Shown one piece after another: positions 8,548 through 58,205 of a stretch of DNA of 64,000 nt; position 1 is the first letter of the stretch, and the number at the start of each line of letters is the position of its first letter. The notes beneath the pieces are model-generated. The model was not told the DNA's origin and did no database searches. It saw nothing but the letters and a program-made list of their open reading frames with translations. Source of the DNA: an uncultured Chloroflexia bacterium (GTDB taxonomy: Bacteria > Chloroflexota > Limnocylindria > Limnocylindrales > CSP1-4); assembly GCA_963712745.1 (NCBI GenBank), contig CAVQJC010000011.1, positions 289,617 to 353,616 of the forward strand, in the 5' to 3' direction. The position numbers were made by a program, and so were the translations under genes.

Positions 8548-8550
8548 CGG

Positions 8551-9456
8551 ATGAGCAACGTGGTAGCCATCGACATGGGTGGCACGAAGACCGCCATCGC
8601 GGTCTTCGACGTCGACGGGCGCCTGCTTGCTCGATCGGTGGAGGCTACCCCGAGGCTCACACCCCATGATGCTGTGCATCGTTTCGCGGAGCGGGCACGA
8701 CAGCTCGAGGGCATCGCCGAGGTCACGGCCGTCGGGATGGCGATGCCTGCCATCGTGGACGCCAACGGGCACGTAGCCTGGGCAGCGCAGAGCGTGTCCG
8801 CATGGGAAGGGGCTCCCGTCGGTGTGATGCTCGCGTCGGCCTTCGGCATTCCTGCGGTCGCGCTGTTCGATGGCTACGCCGCGACCCTCGGGGAGGCGAC
8901 CTTCGGCGCAGGCCGTGGCTATGACAGCGTGGCGACGCTGATCATCGGCACCGGTTTCGGCGCTGGCGTCTGGCTCGAGGGCAAGGTCATCGAGGGGCGG
9001 ACGGGTGTGGCCGGGGCGGTCGGCTGGAATCGCTGGCCGTTGACCGACGGGCTGCTCTCGGAGCCGGCTGAGGCCGTCGCTTCGGGAACGGGGATCCTGG
9101 CTGTGGCGCGCCTCGCTGGACGGCATCAGGACTACCCCGACACGGCGTCCGTGTTCCGACGAGCGTCCGAGGGAGATTCGGCGGCTCGACACGCCGTGGA
9201 CCAAGCCGCCCTCGTGGCTGGCACGGTGGCCGGGCACATCATCGATCTGTTGGCCCCGCAACTCGTGGTCTGGTCTGGAGGGGTTGGCTCGCGCGCTGAC
9301 TTCTCGGAGCTGGCCACCGCGGTCGCGCAGCAGAGCTGTCAACCGTACGCGGTCACGCGTACGAAGTTCACCACATCGGGGCTCGGCGCTGAGTCGAGCC
9401 TCGTCGGAGCGGCAGCCAAGGCGCTGTCGATAGCCAAGGGAGAGGATCCAGGATGA
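8551..9456 (+). CDS. ROK-family sugar kinase (GlcNAc-kinase-like)
   Basis: N-terminal 'VAIDMGGTKTAIAVFD' ASKHA phosphate-1 motif and ROK-like length. Confidence 0.85.
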   Translation: MSNVVAIDMGGTKTAIAVFDVDGRLLARSVEATPRLTPHDAVHRFAERARQLEGIAEVTAVGMAMPAIVDANGHVAWAAQSVSAWEGAPVGVMLASAFGIPAVALFDGYAATLGEATFGAGRGYDSVATLIIGTGFGAGVWLEGKVIEGRTGVAGAVGWNRWPLTDGLLSEPAEAVASGTGILAVARLAGRHQDYPDTASVFRRASEGDSAARHAVDQAALVAGTVAGHIIDLLAPQLVVWSGGVGSRADFSELATAVAQQSCQPYAVTRTKFTTSGLGAESSLVGAAAKALSIAKGEDPG

Positions 9457-16275: not shown

Positions 16276-16418
16276 CCCGGGACTGAACCGGGTAGCAACC
16301 GACCGTCGCACCTCCGCGGACGGTCGAGGGGCATCGACCTCATCGCCGCAGCGAACGCGTCACGCGACAGGGCATATCCCGCGTGCGTGCCTGTTCGACT
16401 TGCGCGCCAACGACACTG

Positions 16419-17387
16419 ATGAGCGCACCAAACACCCGCACCGACACCACCGGCGTGGCCATCGTCTTCGGGGCAGCGGCGGCGCTGGGCACCCTCGGCG
16501 TCATCTCCAACCTGGCCTACGACGCCGGTATGTCGGCCGCGGTCTTCACGGCCCTGCGCGCGGCGCTCGGGACGGTGATCCTGGGCACGCTGGTACTGCT
16601 TCACCTCCAGCCCAGCACCAGCATCCGAGCACTGCCACGGCGCGAGAAGCGCCTGTTCCTCATCGCCATCGTGACGAACGGCTCCATGAACCTGTTGCTC
16701 TTCGCGGGCTTCGAGGTGATGACGGTGGCCCTGGTCATGACGGTCTTCTACACGTACCCCTTGATGGTGATGGTCGTCCAGGCTGTGCGCGGTCAGGAGC
16801 TGGTCACGCCGACACGCGTAGCCGCTCTGATCGTGGCCATGGCTGGACTCCTGCTGGTCATCGGCAGCCAGGTCGGACCGGACGCACACGTCTCGCTGGC
16901 AGGCATCGCGCTGGGGCTGGCTGCGGCGATGTGCCAAGCGGCCTACCTGGTCGTGTCTCGCGACGGCTATCCCTCCGTGCCCGCGGTGCAGGCAACCTCG
17001 TTGGTGCTCGTCGGCGGCGTGCTCATTTCAGGCTCCGCCGCGATCCTCACGGGCGGGGTCGGGTCGGTCAGCACGTGGGCCTCGGAGCCGGTCGCCTGGC
17101 TGGCCGTGATCGTGGCGGGAACGCTCGGTGCTGCCATCCCCAAGGTCATGCTGCTGGTGGGCGTCCGCCGTATCGGCGGCACACGCACAGCCACGGTCAT
17201 GCTCTCCGAGCCGGTGATGGCTGCCGCCTTCGCCGCCGTCGCATTGGGCCAGGAGGTGACCGTGGCTGAGGTCATCGGCGGGGCGGCGATCCTCCTGGGT
17301 GCTGCGCTGGTGCAGCGTCCATCAAGGCGCGACGCCGAAGCCCCCGGTCCGCCCGGGGCCGAGAGTGCCTGGGCCCCTCACGAGTGA
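16419..17387 (+). CDS. DMT-superfamily (EamA-like) transporter
   Basis: About ten hydrophobic helices in two EamA-like halves. No other motif. Confidence 0.8.
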   Translation: MSAPNTRTDTTGVAIVFGAAAALGTLGVISNLAYDAGMSAAVFTALRAALGTVILGTLVLLHLQPSTSIRALPRREKRLFLIAIVTNGSMNLLLFAGFEVMTVALVMTVFYTYPLMVMVVQAVRGQELVTPTRVAALIVAMAGLLLVIGSQVGPDAHVSLAGIALGLAAAMCQAAYLVVSRDGYPSVPAVQATSLVLVGGVLISGSAAILTGGVGSVSTWASEPVAWLAVIVAGTLGAAIPKVMLLVGVRRIGGTRTATVMLSEPVMAAAFAAVALGQEVTVAEVIGGAAILLGAALVQRPSRRDAEAPGPPGAESAWAPHE

Positions 17388-17417
17388 GCGCACCGCGAAA
17401 GCTGCGGCGCAAAGGAA

Positions 17418-17465
17418 TGGTTGGCGAGGAAGGATTCGGGCCCTTCGATCCCCTGATCCCGAGGC
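17418..17465 (-). repeat. Degenerate copy of the 3' half of tRNA-Gln (anticodon loop to CCA); att-like relic
   Basis: Same orientation as the tRNA-Gln at 28434..28508. Perfect 17-nt block 17422-17438 = 28438-28454, and perfect 12-nt block 17448-17459 = 28463-28474. About 6 mismatches and 1 indel overall. Confidence 0.8.
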
Positions 17466-17636
17466 GCCACGCTCGATCCGGCTCTCCTGACTCGTGATCC
17501 TCGGATGCTGTAGTGGTGTCTCCACTGTGGGTCAGAGGAGACGATCGGATGTGCCGACCTTGGCGGCTCTCAGCCATGGCGGGCTTGGGCGTGCCTCGGT
17601 TGTTCCCATCGTTCCTCTTCGGCTCCGTCGGTCAGG

Positions 17637-19736
17637 TCAGGTCTCTGCGAACAGATGTCTGGAGATCACGTGGTCCTGATACTCAGGCGACAGATCACAG
17701 AAGTAGCCGCTCCAGCCCCAGACCCGAACGATGAGGTCACGGTGGTCCTCGGGATGCGCCTTGGCCTCGATGAGCTTGCTCGCGCTCAGCGCGTTCAGCT
17801 GCAGTTGCTGGCCGCCGAGCTGGGCGAACGTGCGCACGAGCGTCGCGACCTTGCCGATCGAGCCCTCGCCCCGGAAGACCGAGTCGGAGAGCTCCAGCGT
17901 GATAGGGCCACCGTTGCAGATGCGACCGTAGTCGAGCTTGGAGTAGGACTGCAGGACGCTGATCGGGCCCCGCAGCCGGGTCCCTGGCGTGGGCGCAAGG
18001 TTTGCGCCGAATGGATCCCCCCGCCGGCGTCCGTCCGCTGTCGGACCGACGACGGGCTCAGGCAGCGGCCCGTCGCTGCGCCCCCGTGCGAGCCACAGGT
18101 AGTACATGGCCGTACCAGTGCCCGGGCGGACCACCAGCCCAGACCGATCGAGCTCCGCCTCGCAGGCGTCCGCCAGCCAGTCGTAGAGCTTCACGAGCAA
18201 GTCATCCACGAGCGGCTCATTCAGGCCAACGTGAGGACTCTCATTGGCCAGCCGGTTCCGGAGCGCCTCGTGACCGACGAAGTCATCATCGAGCGCACGG
18301 AGCACGTCTGCCGGCTCCGTGTCCGCCAGCTCGAAGACGTGCCGCTGGATCGCTGCGAGCGAGTCGGCCGCGCTCGCAGCGGCCGCGCCGTGGATACCGA
18401 GATTGCGGTACCTCGCCCCGCGGCCGTGATCGACACCGCGTTCCAGAGCGTTGGTCATGAGGACGGAGTACCAGGGCGCGGGCGCCCAGAGGAGTCGTTC
18501 ATATGGAGTTGTCCGCTCGCGGACCTGAAGGGCGATCTGCTCTCTGGTCAGGTCGAGGATGTCCTCGAAGGAAGCACCCGCATCCAGCCCCTCACGGATG
18601 GCATGGTCGGCCGCGGCCGGGAACGACACGGCGCCGATGTTGCCGACATCCATGCCACGACCCGGGATGATGAACTCCCAGCACGCAGCCACGGTGTAGT
18701 CGCGCGCATCCTCGAGGTCGTAGCCATGGCTCGCAAGGGCGGGGATGACGACATCATCGTTGGCGTACTGGGGGAAGCCAAGGCCCTTTCGTGTGAGCTC
18801 GGTGGCGAGCTCCAGAAGGGACTGGTCGGTAGCGGCGTTGATACGCAGGTTGACCTTGGGGTCGATAAGCCCGACATCCCGGGCCACGCGAAGAGCCATC
18901 CAAGTCAGTGGATTGACTGCGGAGTCACCAGCCGGCGTGGTGCCACCGAGCGTCATCGACTGACCGTTGTCTCCCTGCTGGATACCGGGATAGAGGTCGG
19001 AATCCCGATTGAGGGCGATGAAGAACTCGGCCAGCAGTTCCTCGGCGTCGGCTTCATCGAGGCGGTCCGATCCAAGGTCGGCCGACAGGTACGGCCAGAG
19101 GTACTGATCCAGACGGCCAAGCCCGACATGATGGTGTCCCGACAGCCAGACGATCGCCTGGAGGAAGCGCAGCGACTGCAGGGCTTCGTGGAAGGTTCGT
19201 GCCCCGTGCGCCGGCACATGCTCCAGTACCCGGGCCACCTCTTCCTTGCCCAGACGACGTGCCTCCGCCGCGTACCTGCCAGCCAGTGCGATGACGGCGT
19301 CGACGGTCTCGACTGCCGCATCGGTGAACTCGATCGCGTCATCGTCGCCGACGGCCACAGCTCGCGCGCGGGTCTCCAAGGCGACTCGGCGCCGCCCGGC
19401 AAGGCCCTGTCCGAGGGCCATGGCCCAGTCGGCACAGACGTTGTTGATGACCCCACCCTCGTGCAGGGTCCGACCCTCAGTCAGGGCCGCGAGGTCCGAG
19501 GTCGTATAGACGTCCGGGATGTCACGGAGGGTCCGGGTGAAGACGATGCGTTCTTCGGGCTCGATGACGACCCGTTCCGCTTCACACATGCGCCTTGTGA
19601 GCCGGGCTCGCCGCATCGGCCAGGAGAGACCCTGGCCATCGCACTCGCTGATGAGCTCTGGGGAGGCGCTTTGCCGGAAGCGCACGAAGTACCCGTCGCG
19701 CGTCCGCGCGCGCAGTCCTGTCAGTCTCTCGTTCAT
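17637..19736 (-). CDS. Glycyl-radical enzyme, PFL2/dehydratase-lyase-like, unusually compact (~699 aa)
   Basis: C-terminal 'DLIVRVWGWSGYFCDLSPEYQDHVISR' (RVxG Gly-radical motif). Cys-x-Glu loop 'TVAACWEFIIPGRG'. ATGA overlap with the activase stop. The ORF-track N-terminal extension to 19910 overlaps the activase and is rejected. Confidence 0.85.
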   Translation of the reverse strand: MNERLTGLRARTRDGYFVRFRQSASPELISECDGQGLSWPMRRARLTRRMCEAERVVIEPEERIVFTRTLRDIPDVYTTSDLAALTEGRTLHEGGVINNVCADWAMALGQGLAGRRRVALETRARAVAVGDDDAIEFTDAAVETVDAVIALAGRYAAEARRLGKEEVARVLEHVPAHGARTFHEALQSLRFLQAIVWLSGHHHVGLGRLDQYLWPYLSADLGSDRLDEADAEELLAEFFIALNRDSDLYPGIQQGDNGQSMTLGGTTPAGDSAVNPLTWMALRVARDVGLIDPKVNLRINAATDQSLLELATELTRKGLGFPQYANDDVVIPALASHGYDLEDARDYTVAACWEFIIPGRGMDVGNIGAVSFPAAADHAIREGLDAGASFEDILDLTREQIALQVRERTTPYERLLWAPAPWYSVLMTNALERGVDHGRGARYRNLGIHGAAAASAADSLAAIQRHVFELADTEPADVLRALDDDFVGHEALRNRLANESPHVGLNEPLVDDLLVKLYDWLADACEAELDRSGLVVRPGTGTAMYYLWLARGRSDGPLPEPVVGPTADGRRRGDPFGANLAPTPGTRLRGPISVLQSYSKLDYGRICNGGPITLELSDSVFRGEGSIGKVATLVRTFAQLGGQQLQLNALSASKLIEAKAHPEDHRDLIVRVWGWSGYFCDLSPEYQDHVISRHLFAET

Positions 19737-20488
19737 GCGACTCGAACCTCGATTCCCTCGCGCCTGAATGGCTCCAGGAGCGCGTTCGGCTGTTGATCCT
19801 CGGCGAATCCGGGGCTGAAGGTCATTCCACAGGCGGCGTACTTCGCCCCGGCTGCCCGGTTGTACGGAAGCAGCTGGACTTCGACCAGGGTGGGCGTCGT
19901 CGTGAGCCACCGGGCGATGGCATCGAGGTTGTCCCTTGTGTCGGTCACGCCCGGCACGAGCGGGACCCGCGCTACGAACGGTCGTGAAAGCCGCTCCAGC
20001 AGCGCCACGTTCCTGAGGATCTGCCCGTTCTCCTGTCCCGTCCAGCGTCGATGGGCATGCGGGTCGATGAGCTTGAGGTCGAGGAACAGGAGGTCGCAGC
20101 GTCCGGCCACGGAACAGAAGCTGTCGGCGTCCGCGTATCCCGAGGTGTCGAGCACGACGTGCGTGTCACCGAGCAGGTCGATGACGTCGGCTACGAAGCC
20201 TGCCTGCATGAGGGGCTCCCCGCCGGAGAACGTGAAGCCGCCTCCGCCCGCGGCCAGGATGTCGACCTGCCCGTTCAGCAGGCCGGCCAGCTCCTCTGCC
20301 TCGTAGCTGCGTCCCACCGTGCGCTCGCCTGCTGGTGAGCGCATCACTTGTGGGGCCATCTCCAGGCCCTCCGGGTTGTGGCACCAGGTGCAGCGAAGCG
20401 GGCAGCCCTTCATGAACACGGTGGTACGGATACCAGGCCCGTCATGGACCGTGAACTCGCGGATGTCGAAGACGATGCCCTGACTCAT
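19733..20488 (-). CDS. Glycyl-radical-enzyme activating protein (radical SAM)
   Basis: 'FTVHDGPGIRTTVFMKGCPLRCTWCHNPE' (CxxxCxxC), 251 aa, no additional ferredoxin-type Cys clusters. Confidence 0.9.
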   Translation of the reverse strand: MSQGIVFDIREFTVHDGPGIRTTVFMKGCPLRCTWCHNPEGLEMAPQVMRSPAGERTVGRSYEAEELAGLLNGQVDILAAGGGGFTFSGGEPLMQAGFVADVIDLLGDTHVVLDTSGYADADSFCSVAGRCDLLFLDLKLIDPHAHRRWTGQENGQILRNVALLERLSRPFVARVPLVPGVTDTRDNLDAIARWLTTTPTLVEVQLLPYNRAAGAKYAACGMTFSPGFAEDQQPNALLEPFRREGIEVRVA

Positions 20489-20519
20489 GGTGTGCGATCC
20501 CCCGGGAGGTGTGGCCCAG

Positions 20520-22118
20520 TCACGCGTCTGCTCCGGCGGATCCGTTCGTGTCGCCCACGTTCCTGTCCGGCAGCATCAAGGTCAGGAGCGACTGCTCGGT
20601 GGCCTCATCGCGTGCGACCTCGGCCGAGATCGAACCCGCGCGCATCACGTAGATGCGATCGCTCATGCTGATGATCTCAGGCAGGTCGGAGGAGATCATG
20701 AGGACCGCTCCGCCCCGGTCGGCGATGGCTTCCATGAGCTGGTAGAGCGCATAGCGCGCCGAGACGTCTACGCCGCGGGTAGGTTCATCGAGGACGTAGA
20801 CGAGCCGGTCGCGAGCCAACCACTTGCCGATCGCCACGCGCTGCTGATTGCCGCCGCTCAGGGTGAACGCTGGCTGGCGCACCGTGCGGGCCACGATGCT
20901 CAGCTCCTCCACCAGCGAGCTTGCCAGTCCTTCCTCCCGACCGGGGCTGACGAGCGGCCCCGGGCCCAGGCGCGGCCACTCCGTGATGGCCAGGTTGCGC
21001 ACGATCGGTAGCGACAGGATGACGCCCTGGTCCTTGCGGTTCTCGGGGACGAAGGCGAATCCGGCGTCGAGACGACGGCGCATCGGCCACGACGTGACGT
21101 CAACTCCGTTGAGGAGCACCGAGCCTGACTCCGCCGGGTCCGCCCCCACGATGACGCGGGCCAGCTCAGTCCTGCCGGCGCCGACCAGTCCGGCGACACC
21201 GACGATCTCACCCCGTCTGACCGTGATCGAGACAGCTGCCGGAGCCCCGACCGGCAGCAGGTCCCGGGTCTCCAGGGCGATGTCACCCGGCGTCGACCGA
21301 CCACGCTGGTAGACCGAGTCGAGATGGCGGCCAACCATCCGCTCGACGATCTCGTCCTTGCTGGTCTCGCTGGTTCGAAGTGTTCCCGTGGAGCGACCAT
21401 CCTTCAGGACCGAGACCCGGTCAGAGATGGTGAAGACCTCGTCGAGTCGATGCGTGACGAAGAGGATGCCTAATCCCTCCGAGCGCAGCCGTCGCAGCAG
21501 TTCGAAGAGTCGCTCCGTCTCGAAACGGCTGAGGCTGGCCGTGGGTTCATCAAGGATGAGGATGCGCGAGCGTTCGTTCAGCGCCCGCGCGATCTCCACC
21601 AGCTGCTGCTGCGACGTCGAGAGTCGCTCGACCGGGGTGTCCGGATCGATGGCCACGCTGAGCGTGGCGATGGCGTCGGTCGCCTGCCGCCGCATCTCGC
21701 CCTTGTCCAGGCGGCGTCCCCGACGCAACTCCCGACCCAGGAACATGTTCTCCACGACCGTCAGGTGTGGCGCCAGGCTGAACTCCTGCCAGATGACCGC
21801 GATGCCCTCCTTGCGCACCCGGGAGATCGTGGTCTCCCCGCGGTAGCGGCCCATCACATGCAGGCTCCCGCCCTCGTAGGGGAGGGCCCCACCGAGGATC
21901 TTGATCAGCGTCGACTTGCCGGCGCCGTTCTCGCCTACGAGCGCGTGGACCTCGCCCGCTCGCAGCTCGAGGGAGGCATCCGCCAACAGCAGCACATCCG
22001 TGCCCCGGATCGGCCGACCTTCGTCGTCGTACGCGAACTTCTGCACGTGTTGGGCGTCAAGCAGGACGGTCTCTGCAGTCTCTTGAGTCGCCGCAGCGCC
22101 TTCTCCCACGGTCGTCAC
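20520..22118 (-). CDS. Sugar ABC transporter ATP-binding protein (duplicated ATPase)
   Basis: 'GENGAGKST', 'LSTSQQQLVEI', 'LSGGNQQRV', 532 aa. Confidence 0.9.
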   Translation of the reverse strand: MTTVGEGAAATQETAETVLLDAQHVQKFAYDDEGRPIRGTDVLLLADASLELRAGEVHALVGENGAGKSTLIKILGGALPYEGGSLHVMGRYRGETTISRVRKEGIAVIWQEFSLAPHLTVVENMFLGRELRRGRRLDKGEMRRQATDAIATLSVAIDPDTPVERLSTSQQQLVEIARALNERSRILILDEPTASLSRFETERLFELLRRLRSEGLGILFVTHRLDEVFTISDRVSVLKDGRSTGTLRTSETSKDEIVERMVGRHLDSVYQRGRSTPGDIALETRDLLPVGAPAAVSITVRRGEIVGVAGLVGAGRTELARVIVGADPAESGSVLLNGVDVTSWPMRRRLDAGFAFVPENRKDQGVILSLPIVRNLAITEWPRLGPGPLVSPGREEGLASSLVEELSIVARTVRQPAFTLSGGNQQRVAIGKWLARDRLVYVLDEPTRGVDVSARYALYQLMEAIADRGGAVLMISSDLPEIISMSDRIYVMRAGSISAEVARDEATEQSLLTLMLPDRNVGDTNGSAGADA

Positions 22119-23155
22119 GTCCGTTCGCCCAGGTATCGACTACGCGCGGCGTCGATGACCAGTGATGTGACGATGAGCAGGCCCATCACCGCCTGGTAGA
22201 GGAGTGGCGTGATGTTGAGCAGGACGATGCAGTTGCCGATGGTGCGGATGATGATGGCGCCGATGATCACCCCTACCACGGTGCCGCGGCCGCCGAAGAG
22301 GCTGGTGCCGCCGACGACCGCAGCAGTGATGGTCTCGAAGGTCGTGTTGAAGCCGCCGAGCGTCGGCACGCCGATCTGCACACGGGAGGTGAGCATCACT
22401 GCCGCCAGGGCGGCCATCCCGCTCCCGATGGCGAAGCAGGTCACGACGATCCTGGGGACGCGGATGCCGGAGAGGCCGGCGGTCACGCGGTTGTAGCCGA
22501 CAGCTACGACCGAGCGGCCGAACGTCGAGCGGTTGAGCACGATCCAGGCGAGAGCAGCCACTACTGCCGCCAAGACCACGAGATAGGGGATCCCGAAGAG
22601 GAATCCGGTCTGCAGACCGACGAACAGGTCGTCGGCCGGCATCGAGAGCATGCTGCCCGCCGAGATCATCTGCGCGATGGCGTAGGCGATGTAGAAGCTG
22701 CCCAGGGTCGTGATGAAGGCCGGGATACGGACCCACTGGACGAGGACGCCGTTGAACAGACCGAAGGCGACGCCTGTCCCGAGGGCCACTGTAAGCGACA
22801 AGGCAAAGTTGCCAGTCTCGATCATGACCGTCACGAGGACGACCGATGTCAGGCCGTACACCGCGCCCACCGACAGGTCGATGCCGCCGATAAGCAGTAC
22901 GAACAGGATGCCGATCGCCGCGACCGAGAGGTCAGAAGCCTGACGCAGGACATTGCGGATGTTGTCGAGGCTCCCGAAGTTCGGTACGAACAGGGCCGCC
23001 AGGATCCACATCACGATGAGGAGCCCCAACAGGCCCAAGGTCGGGTTCCGGCTGATCCGATCCCACATCGCGGCCAGGCGACCTCGCGAGGTCGCCGCGG
23101 CGGGCTCGGGGGTGGTCCGGGGCCCGCCTGTCACGGTCCTCTCGGGATCGCTCAT
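22115..23155 (-). CDS. Sugar ABC transporter permease (CUT2)
   Basis: Multi-TM with 'GGIDLSVGAV'. 4-nt overlaps on both sides. Confidence 0.9.
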   Translation of the reverse strand: MSDPERTVTGGPRTTPEPAAATSRGRLAAMWDRISRNPTLGLLGLLIVMWILAALFVPNFGSLDNIRNVLRQASDLSVAAIGILFVLLIGGIDLSVGAVYGLTSVVLVTVMIETGNFALSLTVALGTGVAFGLFNGVLVQWVRIPAFITTLGSFYIAYAIAQMISAGSMLSMPADDLFVGLQTGFLFGIPYLVVLAAVVAALAWIVLNRSTFGRSVVAVGYNRVTAGLSGIRVPRIVVTCFAIGSGMAALAAVMLTSRVQIGVPTLGGFNTTFETITAAVVGGTSLFGGRGTVVGVIIGAIIIRTIGNCIVLLNITPLLYQAVMGLLIVTSLVIDAARSRYLGERT

Positions 23156-24075
23156 GTGCTGCGGACGCCCCGGGCGCGCACGACTGCCCTGCTCAGGGCA
23201 TCACGAAGGACCGGACCCTGGACCGTCACGAGCACCGCCAGGATGATGAGCATGCCCGTGACGAGGTCCTGCATGAACGGTTGCACACCCTGCAGGTTCA
23301 GGATGTTGCGGATCGCGACCAGGAAGACGGCACCCGCGCCGGCGGCCCAGAGATGTCCGCGGCCGCCGAAGAGGTCGACTCCTCCGATGACGCAAGCGGC
23401 CACAGCGGACAGCGTGAACGGTTCCCCCTGCAGCGGGCTGGCCGTTCCCAGTCGCGCGGCCAGCATCGTTCCGGCCGTTGCGGCCAGCAGCCCGGACACG
23501 ACATAGGCACTTGACAGGATGCGGAGGACCGGGACACCGGATAGGCGGGCAACGGCCAGGTTGTCTCCCGTCGCTCGCAGGTGCACGCCCCAGCTCGTCA
23601 TGCGCCAGACAACCTCCAGCAGGACGAGGACGGTGACTGCCAAGACGACCAGGTAGGGGATCCCGAGGACGCCATCGTTACCGAGCGACACCAACTCGGG
23701 CGGGAGGAGCGGGCGACCGACCAGGTCGGCCAGATAGAGGGCCAGGCCGGCGGCGATGCCCAGCGTTCCAAAGGTAGCGATGAACGGCGGCAGCTTGAGG
23801 CGGGAGACGATGACGGCATTGATGGCTCCGAACGCCACGCCCGCCGCCAGGCCGGCGATCACGGCCAGCGGCCAGGCTACGCCGATGCTCACGAGCGCGA
23901 CCTCCAGCACGCCCACGAGAGACATCACGCCACCGATCGACAGATCGATACCGCCGGTGACGATGACGAGGGTCATGCCGAACGCCGCCACCGACAGGAT
24001 CGCTGCCTGGGACACGACGTTCTCGAGGTTGGGGAGCGTCGCGAAGTAGGGCACGAACTGGCCCACGAGCAGCAC
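23152..24075 (-). CDS. Sugar ABC transporter permease (CUT2); the 5' end appears frame-disrupted (likely original start ATG 24143)
   Basis: 'GGIDLSIGGV' permease body. As read from GTG 24075 the first TM helix is missing. It is encoded in another frame (SLPLLLIAVA) just upstream, behind an SD-ATG at 24143. Confidence 0.8.
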   Translation of the reverse strand: MLLVGQFVPYFATLPNLENVVSQAAILSVAAFGMTLVIVTGGIDLSIGGVMSLVGVLEVALVSIGVAWPLAVIAGLAAGVAFGAINAVIVSRLKLPPFIATFGTLGIAAGLALYLADLVGRPLLPPELVSLGNDGVLGIPYLVVLAVTVLVLLEVVWRMTSWGVHLRATGDNLAVARLSGVPVLRILSSAYVVSGLLAATAGTMLAARLGTASPLQGEPFTLSAVAACVIGGVDLFGGRGHLWAAGAGAVFLVAIRNILNLQGVQPFMQDLVTGMLIILAVLVTVQGPVLRDALSRAVVRARGVRST

Positions 24076-24169
24076 GCGCCACGGCGATCAGCAGCAACGG
24101 CAGCGATCGCGCGTGGCAGTCGGTCCCTCTGGCGGCTGGGCATCCCCAGGGCCTCCGCTGAAGAGCTGG

Positions 24170-24190
24170 CGCACCCCCGTGCGGGGTGCG
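24170..24190 (-). terminator. Intercistronic GC-rich stem-loop (8-bp stem, 5-nt loop) just after the binding-protein gene; attenuator or mRNA-stabiliser type
   Basis: On the minus strand CGCACCCC-gcacg-GGGGTGCG. No U-tract. It sits between the SBP stop (24216) and the permease start. Confidence 0.35.
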
Positions 24191-24215
24191 TCAGCGCACT
24201 TGGACTGGGTGGACC

Positions 24216-25184
24216 CTAGAAGGCCTTCTCCATGGCCTCTTCGGCGTTGTCGATCGTCACCGTGGTGGTGCCTGAATCGATGTACTTCTCGAGTGAGCCG
24301 GGCTCGATCTCACCGTTCGCGATGCCCACAGCGAACTCTGCCGCCATGGAGCCCATGGCCATCGGGTCCTGGGTGTTGTCAGCCAGGAGCTTGCCGTCGA
24401 GGACGCCCTGGATGCCGACCGTGGAACCGTCGATGGCGAGGACCGCCACGTCGGTCTTGCCTGCCCCGGCGAGTGCCTGGAGGATGCCGTCGACCATGAC
24501 GTCACTGGCCGAAAGGACGGCCTGGAGGTCGGGGTTGGCGGTCAGGATGTTCTCCATCGCGGCCAATGCCATGGCGTTGTCCCATTCCCCGGTGGCAGAC
24601 GCCACAGGCGTGATCCCGCCCGAGGCCAGGCCCTCGTTGAAGCCGGTGAGGCGGTCGTCGCCGGCAACCGAGCCGGGTGCGCCCTCGATGATGGCGACCT
24701 TGAGCTCGGGATCGGGCATCGCCGTGACGAGATACGTCGCCAACTCGCGCCCGGCATTCACGTTGTCGGTCGCGATGAGGGTCTCGTACAGCTCTTCGTT
24801 GCCGGCCGCGATGGGCTGGTCGACCAGGATGACCGGGACGCCGGCATCCTTGGCCTTCTGCAGCGCCGGCAGGACCGCCGAACCGTCGAGCGGGCTCACG
24901 ATGATGCCGTCGACCTGCTGCGTGACGAGGTCTTCCAGCTGGCTGGACTGGCTGGCCACAGCGGTCTGCCCACCAGCGACCAGCAGCTGGACCGTACCGC
25001 CCAGCTCCTCGACCTTGTCCGTTGCCGCCTGCACCCAGGCGGCCTGGAACGGATCGTTGGTGATGGTCTTGACGGACAGTCCGATGACCGGGCCGTCGTC
25101 CTGGGCGACCGCGCCCGCGGGCACCATCGCCACAACTAGTGCTGCTGCCGCAATGACAGCTGAGCTGACACCAAGACGTCGCAT
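24216..25184 (-). CDS. Sugar ABC substrate-binding protein (PBP type I, ribose/arabinose-like)
   Basis: GGAGA SD plus ATG 25184. Signal peptide MRRLGVSSAVIAAAALVVAMVPAGAVAQDD. Periplasmic-binding fold length (322 aa). Confidence 0.85.
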   Translation of the reverse strand: MRRLGVSSAVIAAAALVVAMVPAGAVAQDDGPVIGLSVKTITNDPFQAAWVQAATDKVEELGGTVQLLVAGGQTAVASQSSQLEDLVTQQVDGIIVSPLDGSAVLPALQKAKDAGVPVILVDQPIAAGNEELYETLIATDNVNAGRELATYLVTAMPDPELKVAIIEGAPGSVAGDDRLTGFNEGLASGGITPVASATGEWDNAMALAAMENILTANPDLQAVLSASDVMVDGILQALAGAGKTDVAVLAIDGSTVGIQGVLDGKLLADNTQDPMAMGSMAAEFAVGIANGEIEPGSLEKYIDSGTTTVTIDNAEEAMEKAF

Positions 25185-25378
25185 GAGTGATTCTCCGTTC
25201 TTGTGGTCTTTCGGCCACACTTCTGTCTTCGCCGTGGATGCCTCGGATGCCGTTGACTGGGTCCTGGGCGCCGATATCAGCGCCCGCCGCCGGCTCGGTT
25301 CATCCGTTACCATCCGGTGGTCTCGTTCGTAGTGGCCCGGTTCGTCACCCCCCTCCGCCTGCAGACTGTGATGAGTTC

Positions 25379-26881
25379 CTAGACGGCACCGGCAAGATGC
25401 CAGTAGGCGTTGCTCCACTGCACTTCCTTGCGGAAGCGGCGAGCCGTCGTGTCAGCGTCGATGGCGACCAGCTCGACCCCGACCATCTCGGCGAAGTCCT
25501 CGATGACCTCGAGACCGACCGCCTGCGAGTAGGCCGTGTGGTGCGGGCCGCCCGCCAACAGCCACGACTCGGCCGCGGTGGTGAAGTCCGGCTTGGGCAC
25601 CCACAACGCACGGGCCACAGGCAGCTTCGGCAGGTCCGAGGGCGGGTCGATGGCGTCGATCTCGTTGGCCACCAAGCGCAGGCGCGTGCCCATGTCGACC
25701 AGGCCCACCACGACACCCGGACCGGCGGCACCGCTGAACACGAGTCGCACCGGGTCCTCGCGTTCGCCCACGAAGAGGGGATGGATCTCGCATGCGGGCG
25801 TGGCGGCGGCGATGGTCGGACAGATCTCCAGCATGTGCGCCCCGAGCACGGCCGTCTGCGGTGCCCCGAAGTCGTAGGTGTAGTCCTCCATGAACGAGAC
25901 GCCACCCTCGAGCCCTTCGCTCATGGCCTTGACGATGCGCACGAGCATCGACGACTTCCAGTCGCCCTCCGCGCCGAAGCCATAGCCGTCGGCCATGAGC
26001 CGCTGGGCCCCGATGCCCGGCAGCTGCTTCAGGCCGCCCAGGTCCTCGAAGGTGTCGACGAAGGCCATCGAACCGCGCTCGGTGAGGAAGGCCCGCAGGC
26101 CCAGCTCGATGCGGGCCGCATCACGCAGGGACTCGCGCCGGTCGCCTCCGGGGCGCAGCTCGGGCACGACCTCGTAGCGCTCGTCGTACTCGGCGCAGAG
26201 TCGGTCGACCTCGGCATCGGCCACCTGGTCCACGACCGCGGCCAGCTCGTTGACCGGGTAGGTGTTGCAGGCGGCGCCGAAGCGGGCCTGCACCTCGACC
26301 TTGTCGCCGTCGGTGTCGGCCACCTCGCGCATGTTGTCGCCGAAGCGGATGACCCGCAGGTCGCGCGCCTCGTGGGCGCCGGCCGCCGCGCGCATCCAGG
26401 CGCCGACACGACGCTGCACGCCCGCCTCCTGCCAGTGGCCGGCCACGGTCTTGCGCGGTATCCGCAGGCGCGACACGATGTAGGCGAACTCGCGGTCGCC
26501 ATGGGCCGACTGGTTGAGGTTCATGAACTCCATGTCGATGGCGCCGTAGGGCAGGTCGGCGCCGTACTGGGTATGCAGGTGCAGGAACGGCTTGGTCAAC
26601 GCCTGCAGCCCCGCGATCCACATCTTGGCCGGGCTGAACGTGTGCATCCAGCCGATGACGCCGATGCAGCTGTCGTCCGCGGAGGCATCGATGCAGGCGC
26701 GGCGGATGCCATCAGGGTCGAGCAGCGTGGGTGTGTGAACGATCTCGACAGGGATGTCCGGAGCGGCCCCAAGGCCAGCGACGATACGTGCTGATTGCTC
26801 GGCGACTTGCCGCCGAGTCTCCTCGCCGTAGTAGTGCAGGCTCCCCGTCAGGAAGATGATCCGCAGCCCGTCGAACGCCAT
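25379..26881 (-). CDS. araA: L-arabinose isomerase
   Basis: 'WMHTFSPAKMWI.GL', 'IDMEFMNLNQSAHGDREF', 500 aa from ATG 26881 (GAGGAGGAAG SD). Confidence 0.9.
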   Translation of the reverse strand: MAFDGLRIIFLTGSLHYYGEETRRQVAEQSARIVAGLGAAPDIPVEIVHTPTLLDPDGIRRACIDASADDSCIGVIGWMHTFSPAKMWIAGLQALTKPFLHLHTQYGADLPYGAIDMEFMNLNQSAHGDREFAYIVSRLRIPRKTVAGHWQEAGVQRRVGAWMRAAAGAHEARDLRVIRFGDNMREVADTDGDKVEVQARFGAACNTYPVNELAAVVDQVADAEVDRLCAEYDERYEVVPELRPGGDRRESLRDAARIELGLRAFLTERGSMAFVDTFEDLGGLKQLPGIGAQRLMADGYGFGAEGDWKSSMLVRIVKAMSEGLEGGVSFMEDYTYDFGAPQTAVLGAHMLEICPTIAAATPACEIHPLFVGEREDPVRLVFSGAAGPGVVVGLVDMGTRLRLVANEIDAIDPPSDLPKLPVARALWVPKPDFTTAAESWLLAGGPHHTAYSQAVGLEVIEDFAEMVGVELVAIDADTTARRFRKEVQWSNAYWHLAGAV

Positions 26882-26925
26882 TCCGAACTTCCTCCTCGGC
26901 CTGGATGGGCCCAAGTCCCTATGAC

Positions 26926-26953
26926 TGCAAGCGATTGTATGCAAGCGCATGTG
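26926..26953. promoter_or_regulatory. Two adjacent TGCAAGCG-containing half-palindromes (TGCAAGCGATTGTA / TGCAAGCGCATGTG); candidate LacI-family operators between araA and lacI
   Basis: They resemble the TG-AA-CG..-TT-CA architecture of LacI/GalR operators and lie in the divergent intergenic region. Confidence 0.25.
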
Positions 26954-27052
26954 CCAGCGTCAACCAGTACGCTGGAGCCCCATAGGCGTCAATGACACGA
27001 CCCGATGCAGCCCGGCCGCTACGATGGGAGGCCGGAGGCACCAAGGACAGCC

Positions 27053-28165
27053 ATGACACGAGCCAAGCGGCGAGTTCACCCGAGTCCTGTCGACACCACG
27101 CCCGCCGTGTCCGCGAATGTCGCTGCGGGCGTGCCCACGATGCGTGACATCGCCAAGGCCACCAGCGTCTCGCAATCGACGGTGTCACGGATCCTGAGCG
27201 GCACTCCCACTGCCATCCCCATCGCGGAGGCGACACGCGAACGGGTCCTGGAGACGGCCAAGCGTCTCGGCTACAGACCCAACCCACTGGCGCGTGGACT
27301 GATGGGCGCACGGACCATGCTTCTCGGCGCCATCGTCCGAGACATCACCGACCCGAGCTTTCCAGCCATCATCGAGGCTGTCACCACCGAAGCCGGCAGA
27401 CACGGCTACAACGTCGTGCTGGGCCATGCCCGAGGGAGCGCAGGCGAAGCGGTCGAGCTCTGGGCCATCCTGGAATCGCGCCACTGCGACGCGATCCTGT
27501 TGCTTGGTGACTTGAGCAATCAGCCGGCGCTCATCGAAGGCCTTGAGAGCACGCGCGAGCCGGTCGTGGCGCTCTGGCACGGCTCACGTTCTACCGTGAT
27601 CCCGACCGTCAACGTCAACAACCGCAGCGCGATCACGACCCTGATGGAGCATCTCGCCTCGCTGGGGCACGAGCGCATCGCCTTCGTCGGCAGGAAGCAG
27701 TTGGGAGACATCGTAGAGCGTGGGGAGGCCTATGAGGCCTTCCTCGAGCGCCAAGGCTGGCAGATCAACCCGGAGTACATGCCAGACGCCATCAACGAGT
27801 ACGAAGGCGGCATGGAGGCGCTGCATCGTCTGATGGATCTGGAGGAGCCCCCGACGGCCATCGTCGGCGCGACCGATGTCCTTGCCATCGGCCTGGTGCA
27901 CGCGGCGCTCCAGCGGGGCCTCCGGGTGCCGGAGGATGTGTCGGTGACCGGTATCGACGACATCCCGGGGGCTCATGTGATCATGCCGCCCCTGACGACG
28001 ATGCGGATGCCCGTGCGGGCCATGGTCAAGGCCGCGATAGACATCGCCATCGGCTCGCTTGATCGAGAGTCCCACCCCGTGGTGGATGTCCACCCGGTGT
28101 TCGAGGCCGAACTCGTGGTTCGCGGTTCCACGGGGCCCCCACCTGATGCACCGACACGCGCATGA
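27053..28165 (+). CDS. LacI-family transcriptional regulator; start uncertain
   Basis: 'PTMRDIAKATSVSQSTVSRILSG' HTH plus a periplasmic-binding-like effector domain. Confidence 0.85.
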   Translation: MTRAKRRVHPSPVDTTPAVSANVAAGVPTMRDIAKATSVSQSTVSRILSGTPTAIPIAEATRERVLETAKRLGYRPNPLARGLMGARTMLLGAIVRDITDPSFPAIIEAVTTEAGRHGYNVVLGHARGSAGEAVELWAILESRHCDAILLLGDLSNQPALIEGLESTREPVVALWHGSRSTVIPTVNVNNRSAITTLMEHLASLGHERIAFVGRKQLGDIVERGEAYEAFLERQGWQINPEYMPDAINEYEGGMEALHRLMDLEEPPTAIVGATDVLAIGLVHAALQRGLRVPEDVSVTGIDDIPGAHVIMPPLTTMRMPVRAMVKAAIDIAIGSLDRESHPVVDVHPVFEAELVVRGSTGPPPDAPTRA

Positions 28166-28433
28166 CCGCGCCTCGCTTCGCCGTGCACCTCGATCGTTAG
28201 CCTGCCCGGCGCAACTCGGCTACCAGGGGCGACTCAGGTCATGCGGCCCCAACGGCGCCAACGGCCTCGCCGCCCGCCGTCTTCTCGCGCAGTATCCATC
28301 CGAGGGTCGCTCGCTCGATCGCGTCACCACGCACTGGACTGTCCGGTGGAGGCCAAGGTGGAGCTGACGGCCAAGAGGAAGCATCAAGGCCCCGAGAAGG
28401 TAGTCCCGAGGCCTGTGTCACGAATCGAAGAGT

Positions 28434-28508
28434 TGGCTGGCGAGGAAGGATTCGAACCTTCAATCCCCTGATCCAGAGTCAGGTGCCTTACCGTTTGGCC
28501 ACTCGCCA
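28434..28508 (-). tRNA. tRNA-Gln (anticodon CUG), CCA encoded
   Basis: Manual cloverleaf: acceptor TGGCGAG/CTCGCCA, D-arm GCC-AAACGGTAA-GGC, anticodon arm CCTGA-CTCTGGA-TCAGG, T-arm GAAGG-TTCGAAT-CCTTC, discriminator G, CCA. Confidence 0.9.
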
Positions 28509-28621: not shown

Positions 28622-30241
28622 GTGCCCGAGATCATCCATGGCATCGAACGCCGCCCGTTGGAGTCCGGCAAATCGCTGTTCGATTATGCCGACGAGGTCT
28701 CGGTCGCCGTTCCCCAATCGTGTGGCCGCTCGGGCCGCTGCCGCGAGTGCGTGGTCGAGGTCCGCCAGGGCGGTGATGCCCTCTCGCCCCGCACCGAAGC
28801 GGAGGAGTACCTGCCCGCCGATTTCCGGCTTGCCTGCCAGGCGGAGATCGTCTCGCTCGACCACGACGTCGAGTTCGCCATCATCCGCCGGCGCATGCAT
28901 ATCCTCGAGGAGGCCGGTGAGCCCATCACCGAGATCGACCCCGTCGTCACCACCACCGAGCACGCGGTGCTCTACGACGGCGTCACGCTGGACCTGCGCC
29001 GCCAGCACGTGCTGGGCCTGGCCGTCGACGTGGGCACGACCACGGTCGTCTTCCGTCTCATCGACCTGACCGACGGCCACGTCGTGAGCGGCGGTGCCTT
29101 CGAGAACCCCCAGCGCTTTGGCGGCAGCGACGTGATGAGTCGCATCGGGTATGAGCGCGACCACCCCGGCACCTTGCGCAAGGCTCTCCGGCGTGCGCTC
29201 AACGCGGGCCTCAAGGACATCTACAAGGAGCTGAGCATCGACCGCCACGAGGTCTACGAGGCCATGGTCGTGGCCAACTCCACGATGCGCGATCTCTTCT
29301 TCGACATCGACGTCCGGCCCATCGGCGAGATGCCCTACAAGTCGGTGACCGAGCTGGCCGTGCTCCGTGGCGAGACCGACTCCACCTGGGTCAGCAAGCG
29401 CGCCTACGAGCTGGGCATCCTCATCCACCCGCAGGCCCGCGTGGTCGGTGCTCCGCTCATCGCCAGCCACGTGGGCGGGGATGTGGCGGCTGACCTGGTC
29501 GCTACCGACTTCGGCTCGGCGCCCGGCTCCAGCCTGCTCATCGACATCGGCACCAACACCGAGATCGTGGCCACCGACGGCAAGCACATCGTGGCCGCGT
29601 CGAGCCCGGCCGGTCCGGCCTTCGAGGGCGGCATGCTGCGCTTCGGCATGGCCGGCGCTGACGGCGCCATCGAGGCGGTCCACATCAACGACGACGAGTT
29701 CGTCTACCAGGTCATCGGTGGCTACGAGCCCGAGGGCATCTGCGGCTCCGGCCTGGTCGACATCATCGCCGAGCTGCGCCGCCTCGAATGGATGAGCCCG
29801 GAGGGTCGCTTCATCCACGGCGGCAGCGAGTACGCCATCGCACCCCTGCGCGGCATCACCTTCTCGCGTTCCGACGCCAGCCAGCTGGCCCAGGCCAAGG
29901 CCTCCAACGCCTCGGGCCAGCGCATCCTGCTGCGGCGACTGGGCCTGGCCGCGGACGAGGTCGACCACATCTACCTCGCCGGCGGCTTCGCCAATGCCAT
30001 CGACATCGAGAACGCCATCGCCATCGGCTTCCTGGCCCAGGTCCGGCCAGAGCGTGTGGAGCGGGTCGGCAACTCCGCCCTGCGTGGCGCCACCATGCTG
30101 CTGCTTTCACGTCGGCGGCGCGAGTCGCTGAGCGAGCTCATCGGCCGCATCGAACACGTCGAGCTGGAGACCGAACCCGATTTCTTCGACCTCTTCGTCG
30201 ACGGCTGCCTCTTCCATCCCATCCCCACCGCCGCCGCATAG
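28622..30241 (+). CDS. RACo-like reductive activator of corrinoid proteins (N-terminal [2Fe-2S] ferredoxin + ASKHA/DUF4445 ATPase)
   Basis: 'SCGRSGRCRECVVEV...RLACQA' Cys pattern. 'LGLAVDVGTTTVVFRLIDL' and 'LIDIGTNTEIV' ASKHA phosphate motifs. 539 aa, GTG start. Confidence 0.8.
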   Translation: MPEIIHGIERRPLESGKSLFDYADEVSVAVPQSCGRSGRCRECVVEVRQGGDALSPRTEAEEYLPADFRLACQAEIVSLDHDVEFAIIRRRMHILEEAGEPITEIDPVVTTTEHAVLYDGVTLDLRRQHVLGLAVDVGTTTVVFRLIDLTDGHVVSGGAFENPQRFGGSDVMSRIGYERDHPGTLRKALRRALNAGLKDIYKELSIDRHEVYEAMVVANSTMRDLFFDIDVRPIGEMPYKSVTELAVLRGETDSTWVSKRAYELGILIHPQARVVGAPLIASHVGGDVAADLVATDFGSAPGSSLLIDIGTNTEIVATDGKHIVAASSPAGPAFEGGMLRFGMAGADGAIEAVHINDDEFVYQVIGGYEPEGICGSGLVDIIAELRRLEWMSPEGRFIHGGSEYAIAPLRGITFSRSDASQLAQAKASNASGQRILLRRLGLAADEVDHIYLAGGFANAIDIENAIAIGFLAQVRPERVERVGNSALRGATMLLLSRRRRESLSELIGRIEHVELETEPDFFDLFVDGCLFHPIPTAAA

Positions 30242-35574: not shown

Positions 35575-36560
35575 CAGATCAGCCCCTGCACGGCCGAGGC
35601 GATGTCGCTGGCGTTGGGCAGGAAGGCCGCCTCGAGCCCCTCGGCCTGCGGGCTGATGCCGTTGGCGGCACCGATGCGCGCGACCGGGGCGTCGAGATCG
35701 TCGAAGGCCTCAGCCACCACGCGGGCCACGATCTCGTTGACGTAGCTGCCCGAGAGGATGGCCTGGGCCGCGACGACGCAGCGGCCGGTCTTGGCCACCG
35801 AGGCCAGCACCGGCTCCATGTCCAGCGGCACCAGCGTGCGCAGGTCGATGACGTCGCACTCGATGCCCTCGCCGGCCAGCGTATCGGCCGCCTTGAGCGC
35901 ATCGGGCACAGCGGGACCCCAGGCCACGATGGTGGCGTCGCCACCCTCGCGCACCAGCTTGGACTTGCCCAGCGGCACGGTGTACTCACCCTCCGGCACC
36001 GGGCCGCGCGCCGCGTACAGGCCCTGGCTCTCACAGAAGAGCACCGGGTCGTCGGAGCGGATGGCGGACTTGAGCATGCCCTTGGCATCCTCGGCCGACG
36101 AGGGGTACACGACCACGAGCCCGGGCAGATGGGTGAAGAGCGACTCGAGCGATTGCGAGTGCTGGCCGCCGTAGCCCTTGCCTGCACCGACCGAGGCGCG
36201 GATGACCATGGGCACGGTCGTCTGGCCGCCGCTCATGAAGTGCCACTTGCCGGCCTGGTTGGCGATCTGGTCGCTGGCCATGAGCGCGAAGTCCATGTAC
36301 ATCAGCTCGACCACCGGACGCAGCCCGGCCATGGCCGCGCCCACGCCGGTGCCGATGATGGCGGCCTCGGAGATGGGGGTGTTGAAGACGCGGTCTCGGC
36401 CGAAGCGCTCCATCAGGCCCTTGCTGGCCTTGAAAGCACCGCCGTAGTCGGCCACGTCCTCGCCGTAGAAGATGACGCGCTCGTCGCGCTCCATCTCCTC
36501 GATCATGGCCTCACGCAGGGCGTCCTTCTGGAGCATGCCCGCCTCGGTGACCTTGGGCAC
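35574..36560 (-). CDS. 2-oxoacid dehydrogenase E1 component beta subunit (start GTG 36560 or ATG 36536)
   Basis: 'VIFYGEDVADYGGAFKASKGL...FGRDRVFNTPISEAAIIG'. TGATG overlap with the E2 start. Confidence 0.9.
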   Translation of the reverse strand: MPKVTEAGMLQKDALREAMIEEMERDERVIFYGEDVADYGGAFKASKGLMERFGRDRVFNTPISEAAIIGTGVGAAMAGLRPVVELMYMDFALMASDQIANQAGKWHFMSGGQTTVPMVIRASVGAGKGYGGQHSQSLESLFTHLPGLVVVYPSSAEDAKGMLKSAIRSDDPVLFCESQGLYAARGPVPEGEYTVPLGKSKLVREGGDATIVAWGPAVPDALKAADTLAGEGIECDVIDLRTLVPLDMEPVLASVAKTGRCVVAAQAILSGSYVNEIVARVVAEAFDDLDAPVARIGAANGISPQAEGLEAAFLPNASDIASAVQGLI

Positions 36561-36585
36561 GGGCGCGTCATCGTAGAGCGTGGGC

Positions 36586-46345: not shown

Positions 46346-46374
46346 TTGAGTGGTGGAGTGCCAGCGGCTAGGCT
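46346..46374 (+). promoter_or_regulatory. Candidate promoter TTGAGT-N17-TAGGCT for the first STAND gene
   Basis: Hexamers and spacing read from the sequence. The -10 lies 35 nt upstream of ATG 46410, with a GAGAGGA SD. Confidence 0.45.
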
Positions 46375-46409
46375 GGCCAGACGCCAATCATCTAGACGCG
46401 AGAGGACGT

Positions 46410-49841: not shown

Positions 49842-49866
49842 GCGGCGACGAGGAGCGGGCTAGGCT
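49838..49866 (+). promoter_or_regulatory. Candidate promoter TTGAGC-N17-TAGGCT for the second STAND gene; the -35 overlaps the stop codon of the first
   Basis: Same hexamers and spacing as 46346..46374. GAGGGAGGG SD before ATG 49904. Confidence 0.45.
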
Positions 49867-49903
49867 GGCACTCACGCGGGACGCTACGTGCGAGGGAGGG
49901 CGG

Positions 49904-56415: not shown

Positions 56416-56464
56416 GGTGCCCCATCAGCCACGTCAGTCCCCCTCGCTGCGCCCCGTATCCACG

Positions 56465-58168: not shown

Positions 58169-58205
58169 GGATGGTCGTCCTCCTCGTCGTGTGATGGCGC
58201 CGGGC

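Follow-up and report, generated by a model that had tools for sequence, protein, structure and literature searches.

The tRNA-Gln(CUG) gene in a 64-kb stretch of DNA from an uncultured Chloroflexia bacterium (64,000 nt of contig CAVQJC010000011.1; below, the window) and a displaced copy of its 3' part bracket a discrete module of 11 kb, which contains genes for a glycyl radical enzyme (GRE), its activating protein, an ATP-binding cassette (ABC) sugar transporter, L-arabinose isomerase and a LacI-family regulator. The displaced copy is the 3' end of a longer unit resembling an attachment (att) site, and a related genome carries a tandem array of such units. The att-like unit and the intact tRNA-Gln gene probably delimit an integrase-less module that arose by site-specific recombination into tRNA-Gln.

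The tRNA-Gln repeat and the att-like unit

The following features, all on the minus strand of the window, form the bracket.

28434-28508, minus strand: intact tRNA-Gln(CUG) gene (ARAGORN and Rfam RF00005, 68.1 bits)
28434-28478, minus strand: proximal (attL-type) core, tRNA-Gln nt 31-75
17464-17608, minus strand: arm, about 145 nt of non-tRNA sequence (nhmmer profile and alignments of units)
17418-17463, minus strand: distal (attR-type) core, degenerate copy of tRNA-Gln nt 31-75, from the anticodon loop to CCA
17405-17417, minus strand: trailer after CCA, ATTCCTTTGCGCC, alike among units (alignments; the profile match reaches 17405)
17405-17608, minus strand: whole att-like unit (nhmmer profile match, E=1.8e-50)

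The repeat of the tRNA-Gln 3' part is real and far above chance. Local alignment matches the distal core to tRNA-Gln nt 31-75 in 41 of 46 columns with one 1-nt indel; its score is 60, the next-best score elsewhere in the window, on both strands, being 26. Two perfect blocks are common to the tRNA gene and the distal core, one of 12 nt (GGATCAGGGGAT) and one of 17 nt (CGAATCCTTCCTCGCCA), the latter occurring exactly twice in the window (0.00 expected from 100 shuffles), and the T-loop of the copy carries a lesion (GGTTCGAAT to GGGCCCGAAT). Both blocks and the T-loop mutation had been described in a first-pass annotation made by a model from the letters of the window, and the alignment reproduces them; its call of tRNA-Gln(CUG) at 28434-28508 is likewise returned by ARAGORN and Rfam. 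This is the only tRNA called by ARAGORN across the window. The distal core lies on the strand of the tRNA gene itself, 11 kb downstream of the tRNA 3' end.

The tRNA-derived part, however, is not the whole of the repeated element. The first-pass annotation correctly recognized a tRNA copy at 17418-17465, but the copy extends over 17418-17463 and is merely the 3' end of a unit of about 205 nt, whose arm of about 150 nt, as well as its recurrence in arrays, had been overlooked. These features became visible in related loci, fetched via araA and denoted here by L-numbers; the lineage is that of uncultured soil Chloroflexia with 67% GC, and the relatives are Microflora Danica metagenome-assembled genomes. 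Three of the loci (L001, L089 and L091) belong to one genome, represented by CAVRTH010000019.1, L089 and L091 extending the L001 contig in both directions. A profile of the unit (nhmmer) yields five matches in L001, where a sixth copy, c2, consists of the core only. In the genome as a whole, the array comprises seven full units (c0, c1, c3-c6) and the core-only c2, all on one strand within about 30 kb, with c6 at the distal end. No intact tRNA gene was found in L001. By comparison, the 64-kb window has a single copy, and the other related loci, about 250 kb in total, have no copies.

All copies in view have the same orientation: those of the L001 genome lie on one strand, and those of the window, L082 and L085 lie on the tRNA strand, downstream of the tRNA 3' end. 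The core starts at tRNA nt 31, the first base of the anticodon loop, in the window, in c2-c6 of L001, in a duplicate in L082 and in the metagenome contig L086. Full cores extend through CCA, and their identity to tRNA-Gln varies from 89 to 100% across copies. With 89% identity, the core of the window is no more decayed than c6 or that of L086, and its arm is well conserved; the element may be old and immobilised, as described earlier, but need not be. The window's distal core is somewhat decayed, so the module may now be fixed.

The sequence of about 150 nt upstream of the cores is non-tRNA, yet it is homologous among units situated behind unrelated genes in three genomes, which is what a common attP arm would look like. 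The arm of the window is 82-84% identical to those of units c1, c3 and c4 of L001 and to that of L086. It contains about three GGAAC-like direct repeats spaced by about 10 nt and a CAGGAG-TCAGGAG repeat (read from the alignment), as well as a 10-bp GC hairpin (GTCTCC..GGAGAC), and GAGCGTGGCGCC in the arm directly abuts the core. Such repeats and the hairpin suggest arm sites bound by a protein rather than a structured RNA.

Some copies deviate from this organization. Core-only copies in L085 (6.4 kb from the tRNA-Gln gene of that locus) and in L003 (10 nt past a phosphatase gene) are preceded by sequences different from the arm. In L082 (8221-8332, minus strand), tRNA-Gln nt 1-67 run directly, through a CCTC microhomology, into another copy of nt 31-75; the fused tRNA scores 54.9 bits against 68, and may be either damaged or an artefact of long-read assembly. 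In L086 (Ga0316198_10099005, the sole metagenome contig with the arm-core junction), a close relative of the window (GntR is 93% identical at the amino acid level), the unit abuts, at 305-331, an amidohydrolase gene truncated at approximately codon 145, which corresponds to position ~3791 of the window. The fusion thus marks a breakpoint of rearrangement, some 13 kb away from the position of the window unit.

The module, its ends and the tRNA-Gln site in relatives

The module and its immediate surroundings, from the tRNA-proximal to the distal side, are organized as follows.

28622-30241, plus strand: RACo (corrinoid activation; Pfam RACo_C_ter, Raco_middle, Fer2), conserved anchor flank 5' of the tRNA
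28166-28433: 268-nt spacer separating the 3' end of the tRNA from the stop codon of LacI, with no recombinase coding potential
27005-28165, plus strand: LacI-family regulator (Pfam LacI, Peripla_BP_3), tRNA-proximal end of the module
25379-26950, minus strand: L-arabinose isomerase araA (Pfam AraA_N, AraA_central, Arabinose_Iso_C; NCBIfam equivalog NF002795, 742 bits)
20520-25418, minus strand: ribose-type sugar ABC transporter (Pfam Peripla_BP_4, BPD_transp_2 in two genes, two ABC_tran domains), comprised of the substrate-binding protein (24216-25418), two permeases (23152-24075 and 22115-23155) and the ATPase (20520-22118)
19733-20488, minus strand: GRE-activating radical-SAM protein (Pfam Radical_SAM, Fer4_12; TIGR02494, 203.6 bits, above cut-off)
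17637-19736, minus strand: GRE of the PFL2/dehydratase type (Pfam PFL-like, Gly_radical), distal end of the module
16383-17387, plus strand: EamA/DMT transporter (Pfam EamA), distal flank outside the module

These gene calls agree with those of the first-pass annotation (GRE, activase, ABC transporter, araA and LacI inside, EamA/DMT and RACo outside) except for the length of the GRE, which had been given as 757 aa and is 699 aa, as in its homologues. The ends of the module are sharp. In L001, the whole cassette from LacI to GRE is present at 75-93% amino acid identity, lying core-to-core (8353-8398 and 19512-19556) with the same architecture of approximately 11.1 kb as in the window. The unit begins 30 nt past the GRE stop in the window and 70 nt past it in L001, and in both genomes a core is found approximately 270-330 nt past the stop codon of LacI; the proximal bracket is the real tRNA gene in the window versus a core in L001. 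As the bracket is placed alike in both genomes, the cassette and the bracket travel together. The spacer itself can be aligned with L001 only over about 28 nt beside the LacI stop, and the open reading frame 28059-28367 located there has no Pfam or PHROG match.

Moreover, homology of the window with L001, L002, L007 and L087 is confined to the interval bounded by the stop codons of LacI and GRE (window positions 28140-28193 and 17635-17643, respectively) in five different flanking contexts, and beyond these stops the neighbours differ in every genome. The shared start of the cores and the sharp ends of the module thus bear out the earlier proposal of an attL/attR-like signature, in the form of an att-type direct repeat that delimits a discrete 11-kb module.

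Other modules of the L001 array show related behaviour. Module M1 recurs in L090 with 94% nucleotide identity and no units, the breakpoints being 20-275 nt from cores c1 and c2, and in L087 the cassette has module M0 on its other side. In L007 (8404-8508), a pseudogene remnant of 35 codons from the GRE C-terminus, with a stop codon within the glycyl-radical motif, adjoins the cassette on the outer side of LacI. The remnant may derive from an earlier tandem or circular junction. A trace of an att site between it and the LacI end of L007 was sought, and the alignment score equals that of the shuffled null, so the remnant is no more than suggestive. The same interval contains a perfect 17-bp inverted repeat (CCCAGATAGAGCGAACA at 8567-8583 and TGTTCGCTCTATCTGGG at 8753-8769, about 170 nt apart), and L002 has this inverted repeat as well, slightly altered.

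The other side of the boundary was followed through RACo. Orthologues of RACo with 83-91% identity are present in five relatives (L081-L085). The RACo-Kelch-E2/E1-DeoR gene order of the window is retained in L081-L084, and in L085 RACo alone matches. The tRNA-Gln gene adjoins RACo in four of the five, being 100% identical to that of the window in L081 and L083, and each of the five has different DNA beyond the 3' end of the tRNA. The 3' side of tRNA-Gln is therefore a hypervariable hotspot. In the relatives examined, EamA was found neither near tRNA-Gln nor near the cassette, and the DNA beyond tRNA-Gln in the RACo contexts lacks the left flank of the window.

One of the variable regions, in L083, encodes an intact serine recombinase of 230 aa (8365-9057, plus strand), 750 nt from the tRNA-Gln 3' end. 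It has a Resolvase and a partial Recombinase domain, its best PHROG match is an integrase family, and its XisF and CcrB matches are below cut-off. On the far side of this gene (about 8240-8300, minus strand) there is a fragment resembling the T-arm and acceptor 3' part of a different t(m)RNA (GGTTCAAATCC...GTCGGCTCCA), for which ARAGORN and Rfam make no call. The variable region of L085 contains three c-di-GMP-II-GCG riboswitches (RF03170; 7846-7931, 8516-8602 and 9304-9389, minus strand, scoring 39.6, 61 and 64.1 bits), two of which exceed the gathering score, each upstream of a small hypothetical open reading frame (158-182 aa).

Within the module, the GRE is under every NCBIfam equivalog cut-off, its nearest PDB entries being PflD, CutC and diol/glycerol dehydratases, and the nearest NCBIfam model for the transporter, RbsB, is also below cut-off. 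The partnership of this GRE with araA and the ribose-type ABC transporter recurs as a fixed operon across many Chloroflexota, and this gene content suggests an uncharacterised anaerobic substrate derived from a sugar.

Possible origins of the module

The scheme that we infer as the most economical and probable one, including the direction and age of the events, is as follows. A circular form of the module would bear an attP-like site comprised of the arm, a 45-nt core identical to the tRNA and a short trailer. It would recombine with tRNA-Gln(CUG) somewhere inside the shared 45 nt that start at the anticodon loop, so that the tRNA would be regenerated from the DNA of the element and its original 3' part displaced to the far end. 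Since the module carries no recombinase of its own, the enzyme must act in trans, possibly being supplied by another element, or have since been lost; such a module would be functionally a cis-mobilizable element (CIME-like). Repeated events would stack modules in tandem, of which the L001 genome is an example, and would render the tRNA 3' side hypervariable. The cargo would be a native catabolic operon reshuffled within the clade rather than foreign DNA, and copies without units would be produced by deletions, illegitimate joins (as in L082 and L086) and decay of the att sites.

A number of observations weigh against this scheme, the first group of them concerning the recombinase. None was found in the 64-kb window (Pfam and PHROGs on the called genes and on the end-spacer open reading frames 28059-28367 and 17272-17577), in about 38 kb of the L001-genome array, small open reading frames included, or near the L003 core-only copies, and L085 has only a DDE transposase. 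The proximal side of the L001-genome array, in the stretch covered, which ends at c0, has neither a tRNA gene nor a recombinase. No cognate integrase-bearing element with the same att site was seen in approximately 0.4 Mb of fetched related loci. The absence of a recognisable integrase gene reported in the first-pass annotation is thus confirmed for all eight genes of the module and both end spacers, and the remnants of an integrase that it proposed to look for in these spacers were not found among their open reading frames.

The second group concerns the units and the site. The window unit is closer to c1, c3 and c4 (82-83%) than to its positional counterpart c5 (73%). The arm-core junction motif is rare in public sequence data, where it was found in the one short metagenome contig mentioned above (L086) and in no viral contigs, phages or plasmids. 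In L081, the closest relative, a LacI gene 94% identical to that of the window lies 8.8 kb from the tRNA gene, with unrelated genes in between and no core at the junction; the neighbours seen in L081 directly abut LacI in L087. An empty site, with the DMT transporter, tRNA-Gln and RACo adjacent, which the first-pass annotation proposed to look for in related genomes, was not found in the five RACo orthologue contexts. The cassette is present without units in L002, L007, L087 and L088.

The third group concerns the cargo. The GC profile is flat across the region, and the GC content at third codon positions (GC3) is 0.833 inside the module and 0.849 outside. The distance in relative synonymous codon usage (RSCU) between the eight inside genes and the rest is 0.114, compared to 0.164 +/- 0.03 for contiguous blocks of eight genes from elsewhere in the window, taken as the null, 91% of which are at least as distant as the module. 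The cassette occurs in at least five related genomes with 72-93% amino acid identity, which is comparable to the 83-91% of RACo. We therefore reject compositional foreignness, for which GC profile, GC3 and RSCU against contiguous-block nulls give no signal. The cargo looks native to the lineage and is not demonstrably foreign; the first-pass annotation, which had treated it as foreign, had itself named composition and phylogeny indistinguishable from the core genome as grounds for abandoning that view.

The same facts can be accommodated by assuming that the att scar is real but was left by another, since deleted element, the LacI-GRE operon being an ancestral neighbour of tRNA-Gln. The native composition and core-like divergence of the cassette agree with this, as do the lack of an empty site and the presence of the cassette near tRNA-Gln without units in L081 and probably in L087. 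Still, in the window and in L001 alike, the unit directly follows the GRE stop and a core is located approximately 270-330 nt past that of LacI, and the ends of the cassette are sharp and common in five different contexts. We consider this history rather unlikely.

Another assumption is that the units serve gene capture in soil Chloroflexia, as recombination sites of an integron-like platform with a trans-acting recombinase encoded elsewhere. The recombinase would recognise a site of about 205 nt that combines the conserved arm with the 3' part of tRNA-Gln, and would excise, shuffle and stack native operons downstream of tRNA-Gln, with cassettes ranging from single genes to 11-kb operons. This would account for identical modules being unit-free elsewhere and in differing order between genomes. 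As in integrons, there are arrays of modules, each ending in a recombination-site-like element just past a gene stop; two modules of L001 consist of a single gene (alpha/beta hydrolase and UPF0261), and no recombinase is found inside the modules. Unlike integrons, the array has no intI, attI or Pc in view (none within 8.7 kb to the left of c1), the unit is not an imperfect palindrome of the attC kind (its fold z-score is 0.04), a number of modules are operons of more than one gene that include regulators of their own and use both strands, and the repeats are tRNA-derived. An integron-like platform is, in our estimate, a doubtful possibility.

The units could also be a dispersed repeat (similar to miniature inverted-repeat transposable elements or repetitive extragenic palindromes), or a functional 3'-untranslated region or tRNA-like RNA, the arrays resulting from homologous recombination between copies. 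Indeed, units or cores are often located 10-70 nt past stops of genes on the same strand (GRE, twice; alpha/beta hydrolase; UPF0261; the L003 phosphatase), the L086 unit is displaced by about 13 kb and fused to a truncated gene, and the arm hairpin shows some double changes. In addition, TGGCGAGGCC in c4 is similar to the 5' end of the tRNA; this likeness prompted a test for an acceptor-like long-range helix. In eight units, this helix is paired in 49% of cells, which equals the slid controls. The overall covariation of 0.153 is within the control range (0.078-0.167), and the window unit folds like its shuffled versions (z=0.04). The copies are tightly clustered and co-oriented, and a core matching the tRNA at 89-100% needs continued exchange with the tRNA. 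Taken together, these data make a dispersed repeat or a functional RNA quite improbable.

The reading of the unit as a structured or tRNA-like RNA was accordingly discarded: the unit has no Rfam match, and its fold, covariation and acceptor-like helix stay at the control level. The covariation term of RNAalifold is unfavourable, and only the inherited T-arm and the 10-bp GC hairpin of the arm are consistently paired. No terminator- or promoter-like signal was found in the unit.

Finally, a decaying pseudogene from a tandem duplication of tRNA-Gln, unrelated to insertion, would fit the degenerate fragment and the absent integrase, but is extremely unlikely, as truncation at or close to nt 31 is common to more than 10 copies from at least five genomes, and these copies are preceded by mutually homologous non-tRNA sequence, a pattern that random decay would not yield.

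Comparison with known systems and other features of the window

Elements integrating into tRNA genes are usually moved by tyrosine integrases, and the block from the anticodon loop to the 3' end is the commonest attP class among the islands collected in Islander (2083 of 3919; PMC4383910, which cites the sublocation scheme of Williams 2002 for tRNA islands). The locus resembles these islands in the intact tDNA, the displaced fragment in direct orientation, the extent of the block and the tandem arrays; it differs from them in the lack of an integrase and in the presence of at least seven repeats in a relative. Islander demands an integrase gene for each island and includes only four arrays of at least three islands among the 3919 (PMC4383910). 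With the intact tDNA and the displaced direct fragment in place, the locus functions like such an island, but its cargo is not atypical, and for want of an integrase it is not classed as a bona fide Islander-type island.

By analogy, the closest known system is that of the ssrA genomic islands (ssrA-GIs) of Dehalococcoides, which form tandem arrays with 3'-end repeats and a conserved motif upstream of each (McMurdie et al. 2011; PMC3146451). Fifteen of them (about half) have no integration module and were interpreted as cis-mobilizable elements, and the recombinases of this Chloroflexota precedent at ssrA are serine recombinases (PMC3146451). Both systems belong to the phylum Chloroflexota and consist of tandem, repeat-bounded islands with catabolic cargo behind a small-RNA gene; the conserved upstream arm of the tandem units is likewise present in the L001-genome array, the window holding one module. 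The differences are as follows. The target is tRNA-Gln(CUG) here and ssrA in Dehalococcoides; the repeat is 45 nt long and starts at the anticodon loop, compared to 20 bp in the T-loop; and the conserved arm is about 150 nt long, compared to 15 bp. The present module is native in composition, unlike the vcr island with its low GC. No integration module of the DsiB/DsiA type was seen in any unit-flanked module, the sole recombinase being the lone 230-aa serine recombinase of L083.

CIMEs and the accretion-mobilisation of Streptococcus integrative and conjugative element (ICE) families provide another comparison, since there too related elements accumulate in tandem at one site (PMC5704250). Like a CIME, the module is flanked by related att sites and has no recombination and transfer modules of its own. 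Unlike the Streptococcus families, it has neither an identified cognate ICE or integrative and mobilizable element with the same att site nor genes for conjugation or mobilisation; it also differs from them in lineage and att type, and its mobility is putative.

If site-specific recombination into tRNA-Gln is indeed the origin of the module, tandem and partly integrase-less arrays would extend from the ssrA gene of Dehalococcoides to a tRNA gene of uncultured, high-GC soil Chloroflexia. This would suggest a route for reshuffling lineage-native catabolic operons among related genomes, here an uncharacterised GRE with araA and a sugar ABC transporter. Island finders based on composition and integrases would miss such modules, and the signature of arm and core, about 205 nt long, could be used to find them in metagenome-assembled genomes. 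For the window itself the message is modest: a classic tRNA att bracket surrounds an operon that is not demonstrably foreign.

The conserved flank on the RACo side (28622-30241 and 55103-62924) is rich in C1/corrinoid genes. Besides RACo, these encode a URO-D/B12-binding methyltransferase-like protein, formate-tetrahydrofolate ligase, and molybdopterin formate-dehydrogenase-like and NuoF-like subunits. At 35577-37875 (minus strand), a frameshift at approximately 36605-36610 (frame -2 to -3) interrupts the gene for a fused E1 alpha/beta 2-oxoacid dehydrogenase; in relatives this gene is a single open reading frame of 766 aa, and the window version is either a pseudogene or the result of a sequencing error. 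Two adjacent, overlapping open reading frames of 1163 aa (46350-49841 and 49838-53329, plus strand) are tandem paralogues with 70% identity, the first of which contains an AAA_16 ATPase domain and nothing else recognisable.

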